NCBI RefSeq assembly: GCF_006345805.1
Contig: NC_043001.1
Location: forward strand, 23,374,001 to 23,438,000
Origin: Octopus sinensis
Taxonomy: Eukaryota
DNA length: 64,000 bases
Reading direction: 5' to 3'
Below the pieces are notes generated by a model. The model was given only the letters and a program-made list of their open reading frames with translations, was not told the origin of the DNA and made no database searches. Both the position numbers and the translations under genes were made by a program. Below are positions 2,533 to 59,090 of this stretch, one piece after another (the stretch's first letter is position 1; every line of letters starts with the position of its first letter).

Positions 2533-5500
2533 TGAATGCTAAAGGGTTAAGAGTTAAACAAAGCAACAACAGATGTGATAACAGTTCTCTTCGAGGAAAG
2601 ATTTATTTGTAATTGGATCAGAAGAAATGACTAAATAGAGGGAGATTTCCCTTTGGTTGAGATGAATACGTCAATCTGATCCAGCAAACTAATGATCAAA
2701 GACATTGCACTCATGCCCATCACATCTACTTTCTAGGCAATCATATTACACTGAAATATGTTCGTTTTATTTGTTGTTCCCTCACCCACCAATATTTCTA
2801 TGGATTTTAATAATAAAATCTATATATTGACTAGAAATGTAGTTGATAGTTCTAACGCACTCAATGACATAAATGCACACAGATATATATATATATATCA
2901 TCATTGCTTAACGTCTGCCTTCTATGCTGGCATGGGTGGGTATATAGGGTGTATATATATATAATCAAAATAAGCAACAAGGATATCCTTATTTTGATTA
3001 TAATCACCCCATTTAGAATTATATGGATAATACCATACTAAATTCTGGTGCCTTTAACTTAAGTACCATATTCATCTGAATCTAAATTTTACTGAACTTG
3101 TATATGTATATTGATGGCAAGTGTTCTCTACTATAGCCCCGAGACAACTGATGCCTTGTGAGTGATTAGGTGGACAGAAACTGTATGGAAGCTCGTCATA
3201 TGTATGTATATGTGTGTGTTGGTTTATGTCCCCTAGTAACTTAGCAGTTTGACACACACACACACACACACACTTCACTGAACCTAACACTTTCGCATCC
3301 CGTAATCGGTCCATTATAAATTTTTTATTGAGATCCAGTTAGCCTATAATTGAACTGGATGCTAGTTCAACATGAATACAAAATTTGTTGAAGATTGGTT
3401 CGCTGGTTTGAGCAACAACATGGTAACAGACAGACAGAAATTACCATTTATATATAAAGATACACATAAGCCTGTTACTAGCTGTCTGTTTAGTTCCAGG
3501 TCAGTTCATATCCAACAGGCTTGCAGTCAAAGGAATTCTACCCATAATTATCCCATGTTCTATTTTTCAGGCGTAGTGTATACTTCAGACTACATTATTC
3601 AATATTCTAAACAAAAAAAGAAAAAGGGACAGCAGAAGATAACACGAAGGAGATTTTTGAGTGTTTCTACGTTTCATTCTAATGGTGTATAGGGGTACCT
3701 GAAAAACACACTCATCATATATAAATATATATATTTCCAAATACGCCAGCTAAACTAAGTTGTACTGTCTATTAGTCGTAACACACCCGCTGTTTTTGTC
3801 CCGTTTTTACCATTATTGTTTTTTGTAATTTATATTCGTGTGGCATCGTCCGTTTTTCTGTCCCTGTTTCGTATACATTCGATCCTTTTTTCCAAGAAAT
3901 CTAATGCTCGTATCTTAGTTTTTCCTTGGGGCTGGCCGGATCGGAGCGATCTCAAGATTAATCAGCCGAAATTGCTAGGATGATCCGGTTCTTAACTGAA
4001 GATTGAAGGCTTCGAATGTCCCGTCCGTGTTTTTTGTATCGTCTTCTAAATGTTTTACGTTCTTGTCCCAGTTTGTATTTTTCTACATATAATATATATA
4101 TAAATATATATTAGCTGAGGTTTCGAATACGCCCCCCTCTGCCTTTTGTCTTTTTTCCCTAAAGGAAAACTAAAGGGTAGGATGCATGTTCAACACTGCC
4201 GTCCTCTAATATTTTGAGAAAAGACTATCCCATACTCCCCCCTTTTTTTTTGTTTACGTCAGAGATTCTCGATGTAAAGGCAGCGTTACATTTTCTTTCA
4301 TTCATTTTCTAACAGTTAGGTCAAAAAAAAAAAATGGGACCAATGAAACGAAATGAAAGGATTCTATATTTAGTTCTATGTGTAAAGAGTAACAAAAAAA
4401 CAAAATAGTGACAAGTGATTCGGTATAATAATACCCAAACGCCGACATTGAAACGTGGGATGGGAGGGCAACGTTGGAACGCTTTAAAACCAAGACAAGC
4501 ATTTCGAAACATCACCCCACATCACTAACCAAATAAAAAAAAAAGCATCCGCAAATGAATAGGACGTTTTATTTTCCATTTTGACTTTCTTTGAAGGGTT
4601 GTCTTAATAATGATTTTTTTTTTTGTTGTTGAATTTTTTTTTTGATGCTCAGTCAGAGGGACACTATAACTTTTTATAGACCCCCCACCGAAACTAGTGT
4701 AAGGAAGAGAGGAATGTATTCTTAAACCGGAGACGAGCCCGAAAACCTGCAACAGGAAATATTCCGTTATATAAAAGCAACCAAGTACCAGGTGGAGGCG
4801 TTAAACCGGGCGATGCAATTAAAGTGACTACCCAAATACTCCACTCCAGGCCGGAATTTGAACTCAGAACGTGTCTATGCAACATTTCATAGTATTGAAT
4901 TGAGAGCAACATTGAATAACCAAATAATACATTGAGGTTAATTCTCATCAACATGTACAAAATAAGTACAAGGAAGCCTCTATATATAGTTGCTCAACCA
5001 GCTAAAAACAGCAGATAAATTTCCCTCATATCATATCTTATTGACTTTGTAATAAAAGACAATGGATAGTGTAGTACTAAGTGACCTGTAAAAAAAGAGT
5101 ATGACGCTCTAATTATTCTGCTGGTTTGGCAGAATATTTAGAGCATCAGCCAAAATGCCAAGCGCTATTCAGTTTCAGCTTTTGTCCCGAGTTCAAATCC
5201 CATCAAGGTCAACTCTACTTTCGTCCTTCCGGGGGCCAATAAAATGAAATACCTACCAGTGAGGGATAAAAATGATAGAAAACCGGCATAATTAACTTTC
5301 TACAAAACTTTAATTAATTCATCAATTAACTTTCATAATTAACTTTCTGCCCAGCAAAATATTCAAGTAACGAAACAGCTTTTAAATGATTGTTAGAACA
5401 AAAGAAATCATCAAAATATTTTGTGAGATGAAATGAAGAAGGGAGGGCTAGAAATTATATTTTTTTAAAAATTTCATTTCACTGCTATGCGTCACTACAT

Positions 5501-9290: not shown

Positions 9291-25067
<15,777 letters not shown>

Positions 25068-26174: not shown

Positions 26175-27610
26175 TATAATAATAAAAACATTGTGTACAG
26201 TGCTCAGGTGCACTACAACTCATCTAAAGTGTATGTATAATCAGGTGTAGTTTTGGCGGATTTCGGAAAGCATGAGGGCCTTAAAGGATGCAGTGTCGTG
26301 GCAGTCAACAACTGATGCAGGCAGTTTGTTCCATGCTTCAGCAACTGAGTGAAAAAATGTTTCCAAAAGTCATGGGAGCTGTGTTGTTTTCTGACTTTGT
26401 AGGCATGTCCACGTGTGTTAGACACAAGAAGATCAAAAAGGTATTCAGTGTTGTGGATGTTTACGAAGTCCAGTCGCCGGAGCTTCAGGGAAACAAGGCG
26501 CTCAGTGTATGGTAGGTGTCTGATGGAGGGTATGTGTATGGTTGCACATCTCTGAACAGATTCCAGGAGGTCACTGTTCTGAGCAAGATAGGGGTTCCAA
26601 ACTGATGATGCGAATTCCAAGTGTGGTTGTACCATAGCTGTATATAGTTTTAAATAGATGGCTGGAGAGCGGCTAACAAAAGTCTTGAGTGATGCCAAGA
26701 CACCCTCGGCCTTCTTGACAATTTTAGAGATATGCTTTGTCCAACGCAAATCTGATGCCTAGGTCACGTGCGCAAGAGGATTTCTTGATATCAGTGTTGT
26801 GGAGGGAGTATGTGGACGCAGGGTTTTTTCTGCCAAAATGCATGGTGGTACACTTGTCCACAGCCAGTCTGTGATCCATTGCTGCATTGTGTCCAGGTCT
26901 GATTGCAGGAAAGAGCTGTAGACAACAGGATCGGTACAGCTTGATGTCCTCTGCATATTTCAATACTGTGGCATCTATGTCATTAATGTATGCCACAAAC
27001 AAGAGGGGACCAAGGACAGATCCCTGTGGTACACCCGATGACATCTCATATGGTGTAGAATGCTGTCCTAGAACTGTGACTACCTCCTTTTGGCTGAAAA
27101 TGAAGGATTTCAACCAGTTAAAAAGATCATCCCTCACACCCATTGCAGAGAGTTTCACCATAAGCCTTTTGTGTGGCACAGTTGAAAGCCTTAGCAAAGT
27201 CAAGGTAGACAACATCCACCCATGAGCCACTGTCAGTGATCTGAGTAATGTCCTCAAGGAACTCGACAAGCTGATCACTGCAGCTGGAGTTAGGGACAAA
27301 TCCATATTGTGAGGGTTGGATGAGACTGTGAGAGCTCCAGAAGTTCCAAAATGTTTCTCTGACACACGATTCCATCAGTTTTGCAATACAGCTAGTGAGA
27401 CTGACTGGGCGATAGTTGACAGGTGATGTGCGGTCGCCCTTTTTGAACAGAGGAATGACACTGGCAGTTTTCCACTGCTCCGGAGTAGCACCATTGTTGA
27501 GACAGTGCTGGAAAAAAATAGAAAGCAGGTGTAAAAGGAAGTACCTGCCACGTTTGAGAAGCAGGTATGTAACTCCATCAAGACCAGGGGTGGCATAGTT
27601 GCGCTTATTT
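26175..27610 (-). mobile_element. CR1-clade LINE, 5'-truncated, frameshifted RT
   Basis: DVVYLDFAKAF, SGVPQGSVLGPLLF, HLEFASSVWNPY and TRGHAYKV split across frames; 3' tail also present at ~43440-43565 (+). Confidence 0.9.
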
Positions 27611-29387
27611 TGAAGGTGACGTTGCAGATGTTATTCCATTTGAAGGTGACGTATAGATGTTATTCCATTTATTAATAGTGCACTTGGTAGTAGGCTGCTG
27701 AATGCAGCCACCTTGGAGAAATCCCTTCAAGGACCCCAGATTTTGTCTACCTTCCATGATGGTATGGGTTTCATAGAGGGCACCTGGAATGTTCAGATCA
27801 GGCCCTACTGTATCTGGTTGTACTCCGAGTCTGAAGCTTCCTAGAACATGGTAAACACTTGCCTACTCATCAATTGCTGCAGAAAAGTTTTTGTCAGAAT
27901 CTGAAGAGATATAACAAATCATTAAGGCTCCTTTAAAACTGCAGATGCATACCCTCTCAACCAGTCTTGCAATACTAGGATGCTGAGGTATGAAGCTGAA
28001 ATTGCTGATGGCAACAACATTCATTAGTAAACATTACATAGAAATGTCCAGAGTTCAAGCAGTACACTTTCGAATATGTGAAAGCCAACACCCTTACTAA
28101 TTAAATAAGGCATACTAGTTACCAATAAATTAAACATTAGTGAGCCGTGCATTAATGAGGTATTGCAAAGAACTATGCTGATGGAATCAAAAGTACACTA
28201 AAAAAATATTTAAATATAACCATAGTTTTTGAGCAGACTGCCACAAATTTCTCTTAAGATATGGCCGTCAGTATCACCAATCCTGTCAAGTTGATTCCTT
28301 GTCCTACAGTTAATGGAGCTGCATCATTTACTGATATTTAAAGAACAATCTTCGGAATTCCTCTTGAATCGTATCTTCCTCTCCTGAGAGATTTAGGATT
28401 TTTAAACCATGTCTCTGATCAAAGGGAAAGAACTCCGGTTAGAAATCATTCTCTTCTGCGTTTTGGCAGACGAAGCAAACAACTCAAATGATCTGAAAGA
28501 AGTACAGAAGCATATTTTGATTGTGTGGTGATGATCCTTTGGTTCCTTAGAATAATCTTTTACAGGGATATAGAACCATTTGGTGAAACTTCGCGTAGTG
28601 ACAGTACGAGTTCTGGCGTCTACCAAATATATGTCATATATTCTGTCATTAGACTGAGGTACTGCTTTGAGTTTTAGGCAAACAAATCGATTTCAGTACT
28701 TTATTAGTTTCTTATGCTGGACTGCTATGTTATGAAGATGTAAACAAACCAACACCAGTTAAGTAGCGATGGACAAGCTTTTGAACTTTTTACCACACAG
28801 CCGTGTCTCTACCTAGGTACATTTATTTTTATAAGACACCCATTTAAAACACTGGGCAAATCCTTACGGTAAAGTACTCAATGTGCAGAAGAAGAATGTA
28901 TTTGTTTACTCGGGTATCTGATGTCATCATTTGAAATATATATATACAGGTATTGAACCTCTTAGCCAGCAACCTTGGGACCGGAGGTGGTCCAGATTTC
29001 TGGACACAGGCTGAAAATATAAAATAAACAATGGAAAGTAATAAAAATTATAATAAATTGAGACACTTGACTGTGAGAAGAGGGCATCCACACAAGAACT
29101 GGTGTCATGATGCATATGCCTATGGAAACAAAACAAAGCAATCACGTGGTGAACTACAGCCTGCAAAATTCAAAGCTACCCTGATTTTTGGACTCCAGAT
29201 AAGAGTCTGTATATGGTTCCACATAAAAGCACCCAGCACACTCAGTAAAGTGGTTGGCTTTAGGAAGGACATTCCAGCCATAGAAACTATACCACAACAA
29301 CTGCAGCTTGGCAGTTCTGGTCACACCATCAACCTATGTCAGCATAGACAACAGACATTAAAAGATGATGATGGTATATAAATATAA

Positions 29388-30997: not shown

Positions 30998-33190
30998 GGG
31001 AAGCTTTATGAAAATAGACAAAAGACGAAGGCAGGTGGAAAACAAACAAACAATTGTATTAGTATGGCGCTCAGGAAATATAAATAAAACAAGTCTTTAA
31101 CGTTTCGAGCCTACGCTCTTCAACAGAAAGATACACAGAGGAAAAAAAACACAGAAAGAAGGAGAGAAAAAAATATGCGTGCAGTAACTAACGAATCAAC
31201 ATGCCGATCTGATTTCGGCCAGAAGTCAAAGATCAAACATGAGACGCGAGAGCGAAATTAGGGGAGATAATAGGGTTGAATGACCTACTCCAACATAAGG
31301 GTGTGTGTGTGTGAGAGAGAGTATTAGTGCGTATGAGAGGTCTGGATGTGTGTATGTATATATGATGTGATGTGTAAAGTCGTGTAGTGTGGAGAGAGGG
31401 GGAGGGGGAGGAGGAAAGAGGGAGAGAGAAGGGGAGTGAGGGAGGGAGAAAGTGGGAAGAAGGGAAGGGGAGTAGGGGTGAAAGGATGAAGGACTGAAGA
31501 GAAGTAGGTGTCGGGGGGAGAGTTGAGACCAAATGGCGTATAAGAGCGAAGAGAGAAGATTAATTCCTGTTCATGGCGCAAACGGGAATCCGGATGGCCT
31601 CTGTGTAAGGACAAACCGAACACAGACAGGTGTTGCAAGGAGTGACCGGTGGAGCGGAAATGGCGTGAGACCGGTGTGTCATTCGCAAGGTGGATGTCAC
31701 GAAGGTGTTCCGCGAACCGGTCAGCCAAGCGCGTCCTGTTTGTCCGATGTACAAGGAATGGCAGAGAGAGCAAGAGACACAATAGATAATATTGCTGGAG
31801 GTGCAGGTGAAGGAGTTGATGATGCGATAGGGTCGATGATGGGTGCTAGTGAGGAGGGTGGTGTTGGAGAGGTAAGGGCAAGTGCGGCAACGTGGGCGGG
31901 AGCAGGGGACCGAGCCGGGTTGGGAGGTAGGGTCAGGGAAGGAGCTATGGACTAAAAGGTCTCGAAGGTTGTGGGCTCGTTTAAAAGAGGGGAGGGGTCG
32001 GTTAGGGAAGAGGTGTGAAGTGGACGGGTCGGACTGGAGATGACGGAAAGCTCGAAGTATGGTGCGTTGGAGAGGTAGGGTCGTGGGGTGGTGAGGGGAA
32101 AAGGGAGACGGGAGACTACAGGGCGGGTTCGGGGAGAGAGAGCAGATACACGGTCCACGGACCGTGCTCTGGCAAGGGCGGTGTGGATAGTGGTGAGGGG
32201 ATATCCACGTAGGGTGAAGTGGTGAGCCATACGTTGAGACTGAGTCTCAAAGTCGTGGTCGTCACTACAGAGCCTACGTAGACGGAGGAATTGGGAATAG
32301 GGGATGGAAAGCTTGGTGTGTTCTGGGTGGGAGGAAGAGAAGTTGAGGTATGAGTGTGAGTCTGTGTGTTTGTAGTGAATGGAGGTGGTAAGAGTGGAGT
32401 GAAGAATGCTAACCGAAATGTCGAGGAAGGAGACAGAGGTGTTGGAGATAGTGGAAGTGAAGTGGAGGGCTGGATGGAAAGATTGGACGAAAGAGAGGAA
32501 GGAATCTAGATGTTCACGGGGCAGTGAGGTGGCACCGATAATGTCGTCAATGTAACGACCATATATTTCAGGAGTGGGACCAGTGAAATTAGAGAATATT
32601 TGGGCCTCAACATAGCCAACGAACAGGTTCGCATAGTTGGGGCCCATTCGCGTTCCCATGGCCACTCCCGAGACCTGATGGTAGAACTCGCCCGTGAACG
32701 AGAAGCAGTTCAGAGTAAGGACAAGTTCGGCCAGACGAATGAGTGTGGAGGTGTCAGGTTCAGGGTTGGAGCGGAGGTCAAGAAAGTGTTGAAGGGCCTG
32801 CAGTCCTTCGTGGTGAGGGATAACAGTATAGAGGCTTTGGATGTCCATAGTAAAAAGGATTTTGGAGGAGCCGGGAGGAAAGGAGAAAGAGTTGAAAAGC
32901 CGGAGAGCATGGTTGGTATCGTGGATGTGGGAGGGAAGAGATTCCACTAGGGGGGCAAGGACACGGTCGAGGTATTTAGAGATGAGCTCCATGGGGCAGT
33001 TACAGGCGGAGACGATGGGTCGGCCAGGGTTGTTGGGTTTGTGGATTTTGGGGAGGAAGTAAATGGTGGGGTTCGCACAATTAGGTTGGATGCAGTGTGG
33101 GGGAGACGGGAGGACGAGATGAGGTTGCGGACAGTAGAGGATACCATCTGTTGGTAGCTACGTGTGGGGTTTGTCGATGGAAAGTAGAAG
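30998..33190 (-). mobile_element. Penelope-like retroelement (Neptune-type): RT, Cys linker, GIY-YIG; 5'-truncated and frameshifted
   Basis: ORF 31952-32992 has MDIQSLYT, GVAMGTRMGPNYANLF, RYIDD and FLD; followed by PCSRPRCRTC, NIIYCVSCSLC..YIGQTGR and RFAEH...GLN; hammerhead-like motif in the 3' tail. Confidence 0.92.
31094..31131 (-). ncRNA. Minimal hammerhead-like motif in PLE tail (core variant CUGUUGA)
   Basis: Minus strand TCTTT-CTGTTGA-A-GAGC(GTAG)GCTC-GAAA-C-GTT-AAAGA; stems I and II pair, one core substitution. Confidence 0.6.
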
Positions 33191-33644: not shown

Positions 33645-34270
33645 ATAACATTCTTCTACTGCTCTAGGGACCAATTCTGTAGGTTTTTACTCCACTCTAA
33701 ATGCTTTGCAACATTTGTTTTTGAATGTAGTAGTCTTCTGATTGCAGCCCTCCCATGAAATCTGACATTGTGCAGCTCCCGGCGAAAATTTTTTGTGGAA
33801 ACTGGGTTCTCAAGGTAGTCATTAAGTTCTGCAGTAATTTTGGGAGCTGTACTTTCATGATCCTTTCTAACAATTCGCAAAAGTGTCTGACGGGCCCTTT
33901 CTGAAAGTTTTGGTTTTCTTCTGGAGTTTTGTTTCAATGAGGAGGTTTTTCCTTCTTTCTCAAAGGCTGTCATTACTTTCAAGACAGTATTTCTTGATCC
34001 ACCAAACATTTCAGCTGTTTTCTTTATGCTAATGCCTGCCATACGAGCACCAACAATTTTCCTCTTTGAAAGTCCGATAGATCTGTCATTTTAATGAATT
34101 TTAATTACCTTTTTCTGATGATATCTGAAAAGAAACAGCAATTTTAGCAAAACATATTAAGCAACACTAATAATAAATCAAAAAACTTTAAAATAAACAA
34201 GCTTTTGATGGTTTTATAGATATTTAAAAATTATGATGTTAGGTGTTTCTATTATTTTGTCCAACCCCTG
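33645..34270 (-). mobile_element. Tc1-like transposon, 5' part (TIR and N-terminal transposase)
   Basis: TA-CAGGGGTTGGACAAAATAAT TIR ending at 34270; MTDLSDFQRGKIVGARMAG...RKPKLSER HTH domains. Confidence 0.85.
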
Positions 34271-42544: not shown

Positions 42545-42922
42545 CTTTACTCTTTTACTTGTTTCAGTCATTTGACTGCGGCCATGCCGGAGCACCACCT
42601 TTAGTCGAGCAAATCGACCCCAGGACTTATTCTTTGTAAGCCCAGTACTTATTCTATCGGTCTCTTTTTGCCGAACCACTAAGTGACGGGGACATAAACA
42701 CACCAGCATCAGTTGTCAAGCGATGGTAGGGGGACAAACACAGACACACAAACATATACATATATACGACAGGCTTCTTTCAGTTTCCGTCTACCAAATC
42801 CACTCACAAGGCATTGGTCGGCCTGAGGCTATAGCAGAAGACACTTGCCCAAGATGCCACACAGTGGGACTGAACCCGGAACCATGTGGTTGGTAAGCAA
42901 GCTACTTACCACACAGCCACTC
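42545..42922 (-). mobile_element. SINE family A, young full-length copy
   Basis: Near-identical to 44455-44845, 48687-49040 and 54690-55090. Confidence 0.9.
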
Positions 42923-42934
42923 CATTACTAATCT

Positions 42935-43240
42935 GTAACAGGTGCTTGTGCATCATCACCTCAATACTCAGGATATCGACTTTCCTCAGGACCTGTGTAT
43001 CTGGAGTTTTTAAGGTCCAGCCAACATTCAGAATATGTTTCAGACATCTCTGATGGAAGCGTTCAAGGACCTTTACATGATGTTTGTAAAGGGTCCATGT
43101 CTCACATGAATAAAGGAGCGATGTCAGTACACATGCACAGTACACAATAATTTTTGTTTGCCTTGTGATGCCATGTTGGGACCAGACACGAGACTCAAGA
43201 GACCTGAAGGAATCAGTTGCTCTCTGCAACCTGAAAGATA
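42935..43240 (-). mobile_element. RTE-clade LINE fragment
   Basis: TKIIVYCACVLTSLLYSCETWTLY...LERFHQRCLKHIL. Confidence 0.8.
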
Positions 43241-43631
43241 CTTCATCATCCAGGGAGCGTTAAGAAGGCATCCAGCTGTAGAAACACTGCCAGATCAGAC
43301 TGGAGTCTGGCACAGCCTCCTGGCTTCCCAGACCCCAGTCGAATCGTCCAACCCATGCTAGCATGGAAAACGGATTTTAAACGATGACAATGATGATGAT
43401 GATGATTCACCTGATATTGCTCCTTCCATAAGCATGTACACATCTATATCACGACTTTTACACTGTTCACTCTCCTGACTTTTGTACATAATTCTATGTA
43501 CTGTACATGCACCTTTGATGAGTTGTAGTGCACCTGAGCACTATATACAATAATTTCATTATTAGAAACAGTTTATCCTAATTACTTTATAAAATGTGTC
43601 ATCCTTTATGCTTTTTAGACGTTATGATGTA

Positions 43632-47444: not shown

Positions 47445-49195
47445 ACTTGATAAAACTTTCCCCAGCTTGTTTGCACACCAGGGCAATCACCATTCTTATG
47501 TTTTCATTATTCTGTGTAACAACCATTCTTTTTTATTTCAGGTTCTTAAGTTTTTGGGTGAACCCACACTAATAGCGTCTGTCCTCTCTAAGAACAATGG
47601 GACGTGGAAAAGGCCTTAACGATGAAGAAGAGTCTGTCATCATCAAGGAAAGTGCTAAGGGTACCTCTCTTCATGTCATTGCAGAGAAGTTAGGTTGTCA
47701 TCATGTAGGTGGACACAGTTAGATGATTCCTTCACAAAGGAAGAATCGATCCGATTGTGAGACCTCCAAGACTGTAAAAGCTAGGGATTTAAGGAATATT
47801 ATCCACCAGTTATGTGGGAAACCTGGACAAACATGCAAAATCATTTTCACTGCTTCCGGACTTCCTCATGTACCGAAAACCACCAGAAATCATATCCTTG
47901 GGACCATGGCTTCTATGTAAGAACCCCTGAAATTGCCTAACAGGAGTTTGATGCTTCAATTTGCCCAAAAGTACATGACGTTAGACATAAATTTGTTCTG
48001 TTCACTGATGAAAACAGGGCAAACATTGACAGATCTGACAGTTGGGCAAATGGTTGGGTCTATTTTGGAGGTGAACATCACCAACATTTACAACGTCAAC
48101 AATAGGGTGGAGGAGTCATGTTGTGGGCTGGTATCATTAGGGACAGACTTGTTGGTCCAGTCAGGGTGCCCGAAGGAGTTAAAGTGACTGCAGTTGCCTA
48201 CTGCAATCTCCTGAAGGAGGTTTGGGATCCCTGGCTAGATGACGTACCATTTTCACTTGTAAGGAATCTCATATTCATGCATGACAGTGCCCCCACCCAC
48301 TCTGCTAGAACCACCCAAACATTACTAGGGTCTTACGGTGAAAGGTCGATGGTGTGGCAGCATCTATGGATCTTGACCCTATCACAAATCTTTGGTCCAT
48401 CATTAAACAAGATGTTTAAGCTGATGGACGCCAATTTACGTCAAAAGATGTCTTATGGGTGACCATCAAAGCAGCAGCAGAGGCAGTCCAACCTGCTACT
48501 ATTAAGAAATTTACAGATTCCATGACTAATAGGGTTTTTGAAGTTATCCATCGAAATGACGCTCATGTGGCTTAATTCATTATGTCAATATATGTTATAA
48601 TATTATTATGGCTTTCTGTTAAATATATACCCAATGTGTGCTTAATATGTATTATTACCCTTCATTTTCAGGAAAAAATGTCTAGATGGTTCCAGGTTCA
48701 GTCCCACTGCGTGGCATCTTGGGCAAGTGTCTTCTGCTATAGCCCCGGGCCGACCACTGCCTTGTGAGTGGATTTGGTAGACGGAAACTGAAAGAAGCCT
48801 GTCGTATATATGTATATATATATATATATATATGCGTTTGTGTGTCTGTGTTTGTCCCCCTAGCATTGCTTGACAACCGATGCTGGTATGTTTACGTCCC
48901 CGTCACTTAGCGGTTCGGCAAAAGAGACCGATAGAATAAGTACTGGGCTTACAAAGAATAAGTCCCGGGGTCAATTTTCTCGACTAAAGGCGGTGCTCCA
49001 GCGTGGCCACAGTCAAATGACTGAAACAAGTAAAAGAGAGAGATAGGTTATTTTCATTCAAAAGCTGTTAGCGTGGTTCACCCAAATGAATCTGAATCTG
49101 AAATAAAAAAAAGAAAGGATGCTACACATATTAATGAAAACATAACCATGATGTTGTGATAGTGTGCAAACAAGCTGGGAAAAGTTTTATCAAAA
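47445..49195 (+). mobile_element. Decayed Tc1-like transposon with long TIRs and a nested SINE (48687-49040)
   Basis: ATG 47597 MGRGKGL...; VMLWAGI and FMHDSAPTH; inverted arms GATAAAACTTTCCCCAGCTTGTTTGCACAC / GTGTGCAAACAAGCTGGGAAAAGTTTTATC. Confidence 0.85.
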
Positions 49196-52098: not shown

Positions 52099-53648
52099 CA
52101 CAAAAAGATAGATTGATAGATACAATTGAGTGGGCAAATAAAAATATGAGACACTGCCTAGTGTTTTTTTTACCTATCAATTACCTATCAATTAACGCAC
52201 TTATGTGCATGCCTTAATTGATAGGTAATATAAAAAACTTAGTTCAATTAAAAAAATACACTTTTCACTGTCCAGTCACTACAACCACCATCATCTCTCC
52301 CACTCTCTCTCTCTACTTTTCTTTTATCTCACCATCAGAACATTACCCTTCTGCTAAAATTATATATTTAATTCTTCTCCTCTACCTTCAACTAACTTTT
52401 TTGTAACTACGTAATAAATATTACGTTCTCCTTACCTCACATCATGGCCACCTCTCTCTCCCTCTTTTTCTTTCTCCCTCACCCTTTTTTGTTTCACCAC
52501 ATTTTTCACAGCAGCCACAGACCAGTTGTGCTAATCCACCCCCAACACTGGAGAGCAGTTGTCCTATTCCCTTCCATATCAGCTAATTCTGATGAGTGTA
52601 AAGTTATATAATCAGATTGTTACCTAGCATTCCATTGTATTCTTTACACGAAACCAATTAATAAGATCAGCCATGATGGATATTTAATACTATACATTTC
52701 CTACATATATATATGTGTGTGTGTGGCACTTAGTGCACATGTACAGGGAATGTTGATTTGTCGGAGGGAGTGAACTTATTTGATCACTATAAACGAATCA
52801 TGTGTGGTATAAACGATGGGAGAGTTCATATGGACTTGTGTTTCATCCCAACACACACACACACACATACATATATATATATACTAGCTGGTGTACCCAG
52901 CTTCAATCAATGGGCAGGTACCCGGCAGTCGCAGCGCTTCGGCCTCACAATCCATCCTCATTAATTCTGGGAGTGTTTTTGAAGCGTTTCAAATTTTTCT
53001 AGATGGTAACCCTAGATTTTCTTGACATAATAAAGTAGTTTCTTTTACTCTCTTCTCCATGTTCTTATTGCTTACGTCCATAAATTTTTTTTTTGTTTTT
53101 TTAGTAAATTGTGTCATCTAATAGTATTAGAAGTAACTACTGTTAAAAGAAAAGAAGTTTTGTTTTATTATGTGGGTCAAAAGTACAGGATTGACAAGAT
53201 CTAGTTAATTTATGTGAGAGAAATTTCGGTGAAGGTAAAGAATATGCACACTTTCCGAGAATCGAATCCACACTATGCCTGCATTCTGGAATAAAAAAAT
53301 TCCTCTACTGTCATGGAAAAAATGTAACTGTAAAAATGCAGAATTCTTGGAGTAATTGGCATTCAAAAAAGTATGTATGTATAGAAATGTATGAATGGTG
53401 TGCATATTCTTTACTTCTGCTGAAATTTGTTTTTACTTTCTATGGGAACTTACCCTCTGGTATTTATAAACTTTACCTATCGCTATGCAATTTAAGTGGA
53501 AAATGCTGAAGCACATGACTGTCAGGTCTGAATCACACAGTGAAAAACTTGCTTTTTAAAAAATTTTCGCGTTCAAGTTTTCAAAAACGTTTTCTAAAAG
53601 CAGTGAGTGATATACAGATACATACAGCATTTTGCTTTTAGAACTAAC

Positions 53649-53680
<32 letters not shown>

Positions 53681-53828
53681 ATATATATACAAAGAGCAAT
53701 AAAGATTCAAGTTAATTTACTTGAATATGGTACCTAACTTAGATGCACCAAAAAAAACTATACTGATTTAACAATACAGTAATGCGGGGTGATTATAAGC
53801 GAGAAAGAAGCAACAAGAATGAATAGGT

Positions 53829-53919
53829 TTTTAGTACGATCGTTTCATACAAGGACAGGTTTTATTAAAAGTTGCAAAGATTACAGCATATAAACGAGTC
53901 CCGTACTCATCAGCTAAAA
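53829..53919 (-). ncRNA. Type I hammerhead ribozyme motif, left arm
   Basis: Reverse complement of 54514-54604. Confidence 0.75.
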
Positions 53920-54513
53920 TACATGTGAGTTCTCTAGACATCCTAGTGTTTGAGGCTATATTCATGAAGTAATGTAGATAATTAAGTAACATAAACAGAT
54001 TTCTAAAGTTCATTAAAGTTCTTTAAAGATGATGTACAGTCTTATCACAGAATTTTAAAAAGTTTTAATAGCATCACAGAGAAGGTGACCTAATCCATAG
54101 TGCACATATGAATTTCCAGAGATATGATGAGGGATTATATACTCACAGAAGACAAATTTATCCATTGTTAATTACAACGAGGTGGGTCTCAATTCCTGCT
54201 TATTAGCATTACAGAGAGGGTAATGCTAATAAGCAGGAATTGAGACCCACCTCGTTGTAATTAACAATGGATAAATTTGTCTTCTGTGAGTATATAATCC
54301 CTCATCATATCTCTGGAAATTCATATGTGCACTATGGATTAGGTCACCTTCTCTGTGATGCTATTAAAACTTTTTTAAAATTCTGTGATAAGACTGTACA
54401 TCATCTTTAAAGAACTTTAATGAACTTTAGAAATCTGTTTATGTTACTTAATTATCTACATTACTTCATGAATATAGCCTCAAACACTAGGATGTCTAGA
54501 GAACTCACATGTA

Positions 54514-54604
54514 TTTTAGCTGATGAGTACGGGACTCGTTTATATGCTGTAATCTTTGCAACTTTTAATAAAACCTGTCCTTGTATGAAACGATCGTACT
54601 AAAA
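54514..54604 (+). ncRNA. Type I hammerhead ribozyme motif, right arm
   Basis: TTTTAG-CTGATGA-GTACGGGAC...GTCCTTGTAT-GAAA-C(GATC)G-TA^CTAAAA; complete core and palindromic stem III loop. Confidence 0.75.
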
Positions 54605-54634
54605 ACCTATCCATTCTTGTTGCTTCTTTCTCGC

Positions 54635-54687
<53 letters not shown>

Positions 54688-54689
54688 TA

Positions 54690-54846
54690 TGAGTGGCTGT
54701 GTGGTAAGTAGCTTGCTCACCAACCACATGGTTCTAGGTTCAGTCCCACTGCATGGCACCTTGGGCAAGTGTCTTCTACTATAGCCTCGGGCCGACCAGA
54801 GCCTTGTGAGTGGATTTGATAGATGGAAACTGAAAGAAGCCCGTCC

Positions 54847-54879
<33 letters not shown>

Positions 54880-55090
54880 GTGTGTGTGTTTGTGCATCTG
54901 TGTTTGTCCCCCCAACATTGCTTGACAACCGATGCTGGTACATTTACATCCCCGTAACTTAGTGGTTCAGCAAAAGAGACTGGTAGAATAAGTACTAGGC
55001 TTACAGAGAATAAGTCCTGGGGTAGATTTGCTCGACTAAAGGAAGTGCTCCAGCGTGGTTGCAGTCAAATGACTGAAACAAGTAAAAGAA
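54690..55090 (+). mobile_element. SINE family A, full-length
   Basis: Matches other family A copies. Confidence 0.9.
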
Positions 55091-55127
55091 TCTTATATAT
55101 ATATATACATACATACATACATATATA

Positions 55128-55880
55128 TCTTCTATATATATATAAAAGAGAGATTCTGTCCGTTTGTATGTTTGTCCCATAAGGTGAAAGTAAATGGTTC
55201 AAAGGAGGCAACACTAATTGTGTACAAACCTATGATGAACTGCATTGAGGCAAATATTCTCACTGGCTGTGGTAAACATGACACCGTCTTCGTACCTCAC
55301 ATACCAGTTACACCATCTAATGTCCCATTCAAATTTAAGCCCTTACAATTTCCTATCCCACTTCCTTTTGCCATGAGCATTAATAAAAGTCAGGGCCAAT
55401 CTTTCAATTCTCCTTGGGCATATGGCCCATTCAGATGTCAAAAGAAACCATGGCAAAAGGGTCTTCCACTTTACCTGTGGTCTTGTCAGTGCCATCTCAG
55501 ATCCCCTAAAGCTATTCTTCTAGCTTCATTCACGATATACCTATTTCTTTACTACCCACAAGGGGCTAAACGCAGAGAGGACAAACGGATTAAGTCGAGT
55601 ATATCGACCTCAGTGCGTAACTGGTACTTATTTAATCGACCCCAAAAGGATGAAAGGCAAAGTCGACCTCAGCGGACTGTCTATTCAAACGTCAAAAGGA
55701 ACAGTGACAAATAGATGTTCCACTTCATCTGTAGCCTTTACAGGGCCATCGCAGTCACCTGGATTCCTTAAAGCTATTCTTCTAGATGATATATCCATTT
55801 TTCTAGCTTCTTGGTTCCGATATGAACATTAATAAAAGTCAGGGCCAAACACTAAATGTTGCTGGATTGCAACATGAAGA
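55128..55880 (+). mobile_element. Helitron remnant (PIF1-like helicase C-terminal fragment)
   Basis: TCT..TATATAAAAG 5' end; IEANILTG...VPHIP...LQFPIPLPFAMSINKSQGQS; second MNINKSQGQTLNVAGL at ~55822. Confidence 0.8.
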
Positions 55881-58299: not shown

Positions 58300-59090
58300 A
58301 GTTTCAGCTCAAAGCTGTAGCCATACTGGGGAACCCCCTTTTTGCTACACTGCTATTATTGAGAGCCTCCTCTGATATGTGGCATTTGGTGAATAAGGGA
58401 GTTTGATGTCGCTATCCTCATTTGCACCTCCTGTCGCGAGGTAAGTTCATCTGGGATTCTCGACAGGAAGAGATCCAGTTTTGATTTGGAAATGCCAACA
58501 TTCACTTTGTGTAGGTCCCTCAGGCTCTTTGGAAAAATATTAAAAAGCTGTGGGCCCCTGAAACCCAGGCTGTTGCAGTAACTGGTCCAGAAGCACGATG
58601 GCATTGCTGGGATCTTTGGCACTGTGCAGTGTCGACCCGTTCTGGCATTTGTGTAGGTTTCAATGCCAAAATTTGGCACAATCCCTTCCAAGATCTTCCA
58701 GATGTATATAACTGCATACCTCTCCCGCCTACACTCCAGGGAGTAGAGTCTTAGCTGTTTCAGCTTTTCCCAGTAGCTGAGCTGTTGCAATAAGACAATC
58801 TTCTTTGTGAAGCTTTGCTGGATTGCTTCAAGGTCTGCTGTTAATTTTACACTGTTGGGTGATCATAGCTGGGAGCAGTAATCCAGGCAGCTGAGCATGA
58901 ATGTCCTCCAGAGGACCATCATGGCTTCTTTCTCTCTGGTTCTGAAGGTTTTCAGGATCCATTCAGTCAGTCATTTGCACTTTCTCACCATCCTGGCAAT
59001 GTACACTTGGAAAGCGATATCATCACTCATGTCGATACCCAGGTCCCGCACTGATTTAGGTTCTGGGATTGTGATCCCCTGTGGGCCAGC
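58300..59090 (-). mobile_element. CR1/L2-group LINE 3' fragment
   Basis: LSYWEKLKQLRLYSLECRRERYAVIYIWKILEG...GPQLFN; LDYCSQL upstream. Confidence 0.85.

Follow-up and report, generated by a model that had tools for sequence, protein, structure and literature searches.

How does a near-perfect palindrome with a hammerhead ribozyme motif in each arm come to lie inside a (TA)n array of the Octopus sinensis genome, and what is the place of the ribozyme in it? The structure is found in a window of 64,000 nucleotides (NC_043001.1, positions 23,374,001 to 23,438,000), to which all positions refer unless reference coordinates are indicated. The initial annotation had described it as a recent foldback insertion at 53799..54634 derived from the pLTR of a Penelope-like element (PLE) and had given it considerable weight. 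The locus turns out to be a real but ordinary member of a new family of the Hydra clade of PLEs. In every two-armed copy that was scored on one contig, C1, one arm ends at a site A and the other at a site B, and it is likely that both target strands were primed on one RNA.

The palindrome itself was observed as annotated. Its arms (53799-54212 and 54220-54634) align around the 7-nt spacer AGAGAGG (54213-54219) with one substitution and one one-base indel over 415 nt, and a further mismatch, a substitution, is found just outside at 54635. The limits 53799..54634 hold for the palindrome but not for the insertion, which measures 949 bp within the (TA)n array: a 109-bp left tail reaching to 53690, the outer (TA)n and a junction G at 54635 had been missed. 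From left to right, the locus comprises a (TA)n target array with one interruption (53649..53689), the tail of the B arm on the minus strand (53690..53798), which spans the interval between start sites A and B and maps to the tail of the reference copy (ref 4480-4600), the body of the B arm, also on the minus strand (53799..54221; ref 4056-4479), the A arm on the plus strand (54220..54634; ref 4065-4479), whose terminus is start site A, the junction G in place of the template T at this site (54635, plus strand) and the right (TA)n target array (54636..54690). Both arm bodies are 5'-truncated copies of the 3'UTR/pLTR, and (TA)n is found at nearly all ends of the family. The tail is present on one side only at this locus; it is about 120 bp long in L037, a natural copy of 4,607 nt that serves as ruler for the reference coordinates.

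The foldback junction that had been proposed was also recovered at the centre (54213..54221), in the form of the 7-nt loop and a 2-nt GT/AC microhomology stem. The B-arm body includes both the loop, which it templates at 7 of 7 nt, and the shared GT at 54220-54221. The B cDNA of this locus extends to ...AGAGAGGGT, the final two bases of which are able to pair with the AC of its own stem. The two differences in 415 nt agree with a recent insertion, as had been claimed, the mean arm-to-arm difference in the family being 0.42-0.45%. Of note, a small hairpin (AUUCAAGU...ACUUGAAU) is found in the tail at 53701-53725, just upstream of site B; it is partly retained in diverged subfamilies and is a candidate protein-binding element.

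As judged from sequence, the arms derive from the 3' end of a Hydra-clade PLE (RT plus GIY-YIG), in line with the pLTR origin suggested earlier. A search of the 2.72-Gb genome with the arm returned 1,621 first-look candidates, the best 40 of which scored 97-100% identical, and the family counts at least about 1,000 insertions. The arm corresponds to the final part of the 3'UTR, a region of about 1.6 kb that acts as a pLTR where tandem copies precede the ORF. In another copy, L326, a 947-aa open frame with YRDD and YKC...FYIG motifs holds an RT together with a GIY-YIG endonuclease at the C terminus in a single ORF. This protein gave in Pfam a weak RVT_1 match under the cut-off and no GIY-YIG match; it has 25 homologues at E<=1e-10, and a 68%-identical partial protein match is labelled Octopus sinensis. 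The features listed for the Hydra clade are RWK, DKT, CxCX5C, no CCHH, CxxC with CxH and a (TA)n target (PMC8557442; here and below, statements on cited sources refer to their accessible parts). In L326 and L037, the motifs RRIRWK and PADKTG correspond to RWK and to DKG changed to DKT. The linker CKCRIKSKC is of the CxCX5C type, CQLC...E and N...CVH provide CxxC and CxH near a conserved E and N, CCHH is absent, and the family inserts into (TA)n. Taken together, these features lead to the Hydra-clade assignment; by eye, the protein also resembles the Hydra alignment blocks of the accessible supplement of PMC8557442.

Several other identities were considered and rejected. The Neptune clade, which has a CX2-5CxxC linker and CCHH, is ruled out by the CxCX5C linker and the absence of CCHH, and identity with Hydra-1_Obim is ruled out by both the protein and the hammerhead, which differ. 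Non-LTR retrozymes are head-to-tail tandem units with a hammerhead in each and no ORF (bioRxiv 10.64898/2026.07.22.740005, in its accessible part); this identity is ruled out, the copies being head-to-head truncations of an ORF-bearing element. In the same way, a MITE or DNA foldback element with equal TIRs and constant size is ruled out by ends that differ by the tail and by arms ranging from about 10 nt to more than 4 kb. Inverted copies truncated at the 5' end occur in PLEs in general, as does a tail at one of the ends (PMC8557442), and a pLTR in partial tandem before the ORF, an inverted 5'-truncated copy and a one-sided tail are present in this family (L034, L037; 37 tandem junctions; census).

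Additional observations were made on the elements. The ORFs of L326, L039 and L233 contain two Asn-rich inserts, located after the RT thumb and before the linker. The inverted arms of L326 (977-3999 and 5365-8387) are 99.97% identical over 3 kb, which indicates that the family inserted very recently. In the 3'UTR of L037, a long pyrimidine tract ending in CTAG (ref ~3600-3835) resembles a 3' splice site, and most arms start downstream of it; no GT..AG joint was found among the contigs shown over the ORF and UTR (three runs guessed to be RNA and one of unknown kind), a result that speaks neither for nor against expression. The same 3'UTR contains an older duplication (ref ~3917-4022 and 4074-4180, spacing about 157 nt, about 77% identical) that is apparently partly missing from more diverged subfamilies. 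Finally, L007 and L008 are one insertion on two unplaced contigs, probably duplicated haplotigs, and counts on small contigs may be inflated.

The outward-pointing hammerhead motif was found in each arm. On the plus strand (54514..54604), stem I is formed by UUUUAG (54514-54519) and CUAAAA (54599-54604), and the core by CUGAUGA (54520-54526), GAAA (54587-54590), C-GAUC-G and GUA (54596-54598), with the palindromic ACGAUCGU as stem/loop III; motif anatomy places the expected cut after 54598, as previously given. By symmetry, the hammerhead of the B arm lies at 53829..53919 on the minus strand, with CUGAUGA starting at 53913 and an expected cut after 53835. The minimal type I architecture with a palindromic loop III holds across the family: CUGANGA, GAAA, NUH and stems I-III are present, and the core is invariant in 13 of 13 aligned copies from several subfamilies. 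In these copies, 98.4% of the cells are paired and four pairs show two-sided changes, a covariation reached in 3 of 500 shuffles, which is supportive and not a probability since the sequences are related. Loop III covaries, being found as CGAUCG, CGAUUG or CAAUUG in copies from several subfamilies; all are self-complementary, the energies computed for the 8-mer duplexes being -10.0, -5.8 and -6.4 kcal/mol respectively, and this fits the dimer cleavage model (PMC4209133). The Rfam check that had been advised for the motif returned no hammerhead family, whether the window was scanned at the gathering threshold or 53600-54750 at E<=10. At E<=10 there were 38 Rfam matches, all of them look-alikes (hairpins or TA repeats) under their gathering scores. 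The hammerhead call is therefore founded on the anatomy of the motif and on covariation.

The hammerhead is the pLTR ribozyme of the element family, carried along with it, and there is one in each arm because the 3' end of the element is duplicated. Since the two motifs are on opposite strands, one transcript has one sense copy only and no dimer can form in cis. Cleavage is predicted to require dimer formation or the help of a protein and to take place in the transcripts of source copies that stand in tandem; at this locus, the motif likely has no special role. Three short copies that begin near the cut site could be taken for a trace of in vivo cleavage. This reading was rejected: the genome-wide pattern for 5' junctions at ref 4438-4451, which is blind to junctions onto TA, showed no surplus of copies that start at the cut site. 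Its 88 matches include 40 from 20 micro-palindromes centred on GTAC, a number of A-run length variants and a single clean cut-site start.

The one-sided tail and the way in which the copies end, both missed earlier, carry mechanistic information. Copies terminate at A (ref ~4480) or at B (ref ~4600). Exact genome-wide counts gave 917 A ends (698 with the junction G and 219 with T) and 1,041 read-throughs past this site; B ends on TA numbered 733, and tandem read-throughs at B numbered 37. A-terminated and B-side ends are near 1:1. On contig C1, where the end-site lists are complete, coordinates revealed 45 divergent A-B pairs, no A-A or B-B pair and no convergent neighbours. Unpaired sites of this contig were then fetched for a census limited to copies matching one of four exact patterns. 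Among its 94 insertions, 69 were A+B, none A+A, none B+B, 11 A-only, 11 B-only (one with a very short A stub) and 3 other. The A+B insertions divide into 65 simple ones (29 near-symmetric, 20 with a longer A arm and 16 with a longer B arm) and 4 complex ones. A wider, non-random set of 134 two-arm junctions contained 129 A+B and 5 B+B, the latter all at an internal tandem junction. In more diverged subfamilies, two arms were seen by eye in 10 of 18 loci, all of them A+B and none A+A or B+B. Moreover, the arms of a pair belong to the same subfamily in 108 of 108 callable pairs (43 both subfamily 1, 65 both subfamily 2, none mixed; 21 not callable), and they agree in haplotype at ref 4403 in 32 and 27 pairs with none mixed. 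The two subfamilies are of like age as measured by mean arm-to-arm difference (0.45% and 0.42%).

With 29 of 94 C1 insertions being near-perfect palindromes, the present locus belongs to a class of roughly one third, and the weight first given to its structure was excessive. The 22 single-arm insertions indicate that twin priming is not obligatory. A literature search, with subscription papers outside its reach, found neither a one-A-one-B rule nor twin priming in PLEs. Inverted pLTRs, tails and opposed hammerheads were already known, and the strict A+B rule was absent from the literature that was searched.

A pyrimidine-rich run precedes each of the start sites A and B, and no more than two bases separate each of them from a UAUA, which could pair with a ...TATA primer. 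At site B, 40 of 66 C1 junctions read G then TATATA. At site A, a G stands where the template has T in 51 of 72 C1 junctions, and the same extra G was found after a different dinucleotide in two diverged copies. The site-A G would be explained if a first dC was copied from the G two bases on, with a backward slip thereafter, or if the dC was untemplated; it might also derive from the target.

Twin target-primed reverse transcription on one RNA, followed by cDNA foldback or by joining through microhomology, is probably the origin of these insertions, as far as finished copies, from which all the evidence is drawn, can tell. The endonuclease, probably as a dimer, would nick both strands of (TA)n, each 3' ...TATA end would pair with the UAUA adjoining a start site, and copying would start at a G. 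One cDNA end may then anneal to the other by inverted microhomology, giving unequal arms, or one cDNA may fold back, a palindrome resulting when its sense copy pairs with the second cDNA; at this locus, the B cDNA would have folded back on itself. A single surviving cDNA would leave one arm. One RNA copied twice is indistinguishable from two RNAs of one source locus or from a multi-unit transcript. On a fuller model for PLEs our confidence is evenly balanced: a dimer on one transcript would carry out reverse transcription at A and at B, with UAUA pairing at (TA)n, and the two cDNAs would serve as mutual templates. If this asymmetric twin priming is true, a separate second-strand priming is unneeded, and inverted pLTRs, one-sided tails and junction palindromes come from one mechanism; the extra site-A G would then have been left by a telomerase-like slip following the first nucleotide.

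The centres of the insertions inform on how the arms meet. Arm starts fall within 30 nt of each other in 29 of 67 C1 pairs (permutation mean 4.1, maximum 14 in 20,000), and by eye one micro-hairpin centre at GTAC is common to 20 loci. These near-equal starts and the recurrent micro-hairpin point to intramolecular foldback as a common resolution. The 67 C1 centres show microhomology of at least 2 nt in 29 cases, for a chance level of 19% and with tolerance for point mutations in the count, 0-1 nt in 16, locally templated inserts of at least 8 nt in 10 and other inserts in 12. The centres of L019, L023, L034, L042, L043, L087 and L139 are filled by repeated short copies of the arm 5' end, which suggests iterative slippage by the RT or a repair polymerase. 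Foldback predicts shared RT errors; they were not detected among locus-private variants common to both arms, for which palindromes (11 in 10,175 nt) and unequal pairs (20 in 21,543 nt) did not differ, the power of this comparison being low.

Other explanations have to be weighed against twin priming. A single B-primed cDNA might fold back or switch template and copy itself, after which the endonuclease would cut the new duplex at site A, which is TA-like, and ligation would attach it to the other end of the target. It would explain the present locus fully, with a loop that belongs to B, and would account for the one-sided tail and the same-subfamily arms; site A reads TTATA, and the tail has been suggested to be a product of EN-mediated resolution (PMC8557442). 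However, it predicts an A arm always contained in the B arm, whereas A is longer in 22 of the 38 unequal C1 pairs (B in 16) and 5 of them have no sequence common to both arms. Moreover, the owner of the loop in 50 palindromes is A in 14, B in 12, unclear in 12 and without a loop in 12, and 11 C1 insertions are A-only. B-first foldback as the only route is contradicted, and we regard this single-cDNA scheme as quite improbable. Arm lengths are also uncorrelated in the unequal C1 pairs (rho 0.12, p 0.47, n=38), and together with the pairs devoid of overlap and the single arms of both types this indicates that each end is primable on its own. Also unlikely is the model of Arkhipova et al. 2013 (PMC3846280), in which the inverted arm arises on an antisense transcript, by self-priming or by template switching. 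Head-to-head palindromes and the intron retention of PLEs would be accounted for, and the palindromes themselves could give antisense RNA, but such a route gives no reason for two fixed outer ends that are each used once. Sense-RNA start sites matching the tail were shown in vitro for an anole PLE (PMC11167929). In addition, the G at A and at B reads naturally, as we infer, as the first base of an antisense cDNA.

Events subsequent to insertion, namely break repair in the TA array, gene conversion or an adjacent second insertion, might also create or homogenise inverted pairs. (TA)n arrays are indeed fragile, and the templated inserts at the centres resemble what is generally known of polymerase-theta end joining. 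A second insertion nevertheless predicts mixed subfamilies as well as A+A, B+B and tail-to-tail pairs, and 0 of 108 pairs are mixed and 0 are A+A or B+B in the census. No convergent neighbours occur on C1, no TA spacer was found at the centres of inverted pairs, and palindromes are no more homogeneous than unequal pairs (arm-to-arm difference of 0.51% versus 0.39%), which leaves later events a very improbable source. Finally, this palindrome might be an assembly or library foldback artefact. Its central junction is bridged by no listed contig of four public runs, of which three are guessed to be DNA and the kind of the fourth is not given; contigs built from k-mers break off in repeats. An assembly foldback is unlikely because the arms, which have two differences, part exactly at the family site A and because the layout recurs genome-wide. 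Furthermore, the tail is present on the left arm and the family junction G on the right one, and the outer flanks differ. An artefact of either kind appears extremely improbable.

In the neighbourhood, exons that we take to be those of a DDX5/DDX17-like DEAD-box RNA helicase are found at ~19700-25067 on the plus strand, and the nearest recognised host exons, those of this putative helicase, end about 28 kb upstream of the palindrome. A plus-strand frame with AMSINKSQGQS at 55073-55714 is presumably a C-terminal fragment of a PIF1/Helitron helicase. Other segments (33656-34090, 26213-27630, 42906-43259 and 58356-58862 on the minus strand, 48106-48462 on the plus strand) presumably are Tc1/mariner-like transposase and LINE RT fragments. 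A second, unrelated PLE fragment lies at 31324-33157 on the minus strand, with an RT frame, a CxxxxCxxC linker and a GIY-YIG-like frame; by eye it resembles the Neptune rows in the accessible part of the alignment of Craig et al.

The locus itself is of little weight, and it is the young, high-copy family that matters. About three quarters of its insertions are inverted repeats and thus a possible source of dsRNA. It is plausible that dsRNA from the palindrome feeds ADAR or Dicer, and in the host animal group non-neural A-to-I editing is directed at repeats (PMC9068888). Such palindromes also mislead repeat annotation, in which they are taken for MITEs or hairpin RNA genes. Both PMC8557442 and PMC11167929 count the formation of the tandem and inverted structures of PLEs among the open questions. 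The countable rule described here (one A and one B end, same subfamily, either cDNA folds) separates the published models and yields exact predictions for an in vitro assay.

Among known systems, Hydra-1_Obim of Octopus bimaculoides (Craig et al. 2021, PMC8557442) shares with this family RWK, DKT, CxCX5C, the absence of CCHH and CxxC/CxH around E and N, as well as the hammerhead in the 3' end and the (TA)n target of its clade. Unlike the Hydra clade, with units of less than 3 kb (PMC8557442), the unit here reaches about 4.6 kb and contains Asn-rich inserts; its 3'UTR measures about 1.6 kb and its tail about 120 nt. The Penelope elements of Adineta vaga (PMC3846280) also display head-to-head ends, a tail on one inverted pLTR, junction palindromes and N-rich inserts. 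They were described from few copies and explained by antisense self-priming, whereas here the pairing was counted (69 A+B, 0 A+A, 0 B+B), and twin sense priming is favoured over antisense self-priming by the lengths of the arms and by the loops. In the anole PLE protein studied in vitro (PMC11167929), both strands were cut and extended, starts occurred at two sites bracketing the tail and a dimer was predicted. This element, PAc (Poseidon, Anolis carolinensis; Frangieh et al. 2024), thus resembles the octopus family by its two internal RT start sites bracketing the tail and by its AT-rich target, and its hammerhead was reported not to be needed for insertion. Its start sites are inside the ORF, its tail measures 30-40 bp and target homology is absent, whereas here the start sites are upstream of the first ATG, about 120 nt apart and each adjoining UAUA; the accessible parts of the PAc paper (PMC11167929) do not address inverted insertions or the pairing of two start sites.

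The hammerhead resembles the minimal ones of PMC4209133, which are of type I with a tiny helix III and a palindromic loop and include opposite-strand pairs 100-700 bp apart in Schistosoma; the paper that presents the dimer model also reports low activity in vitro. It differs from them by a long branched stem II domain of about 60 nt and by the pair G10.1-U11.1, which is a wobble in most copies but G-C in a single diverged one. Finally, twin priming is a feature of L1, in which two primings on opposite target strands give rise to an inversion joined by microhomology, the second priming taking place at a variable internal site without any sequence being duplicated. Unlike in L1, both start sites are fixed in the octopus family, the same 3' region is usually repeated in both arms, and the majority of insertions would result from twin priming.
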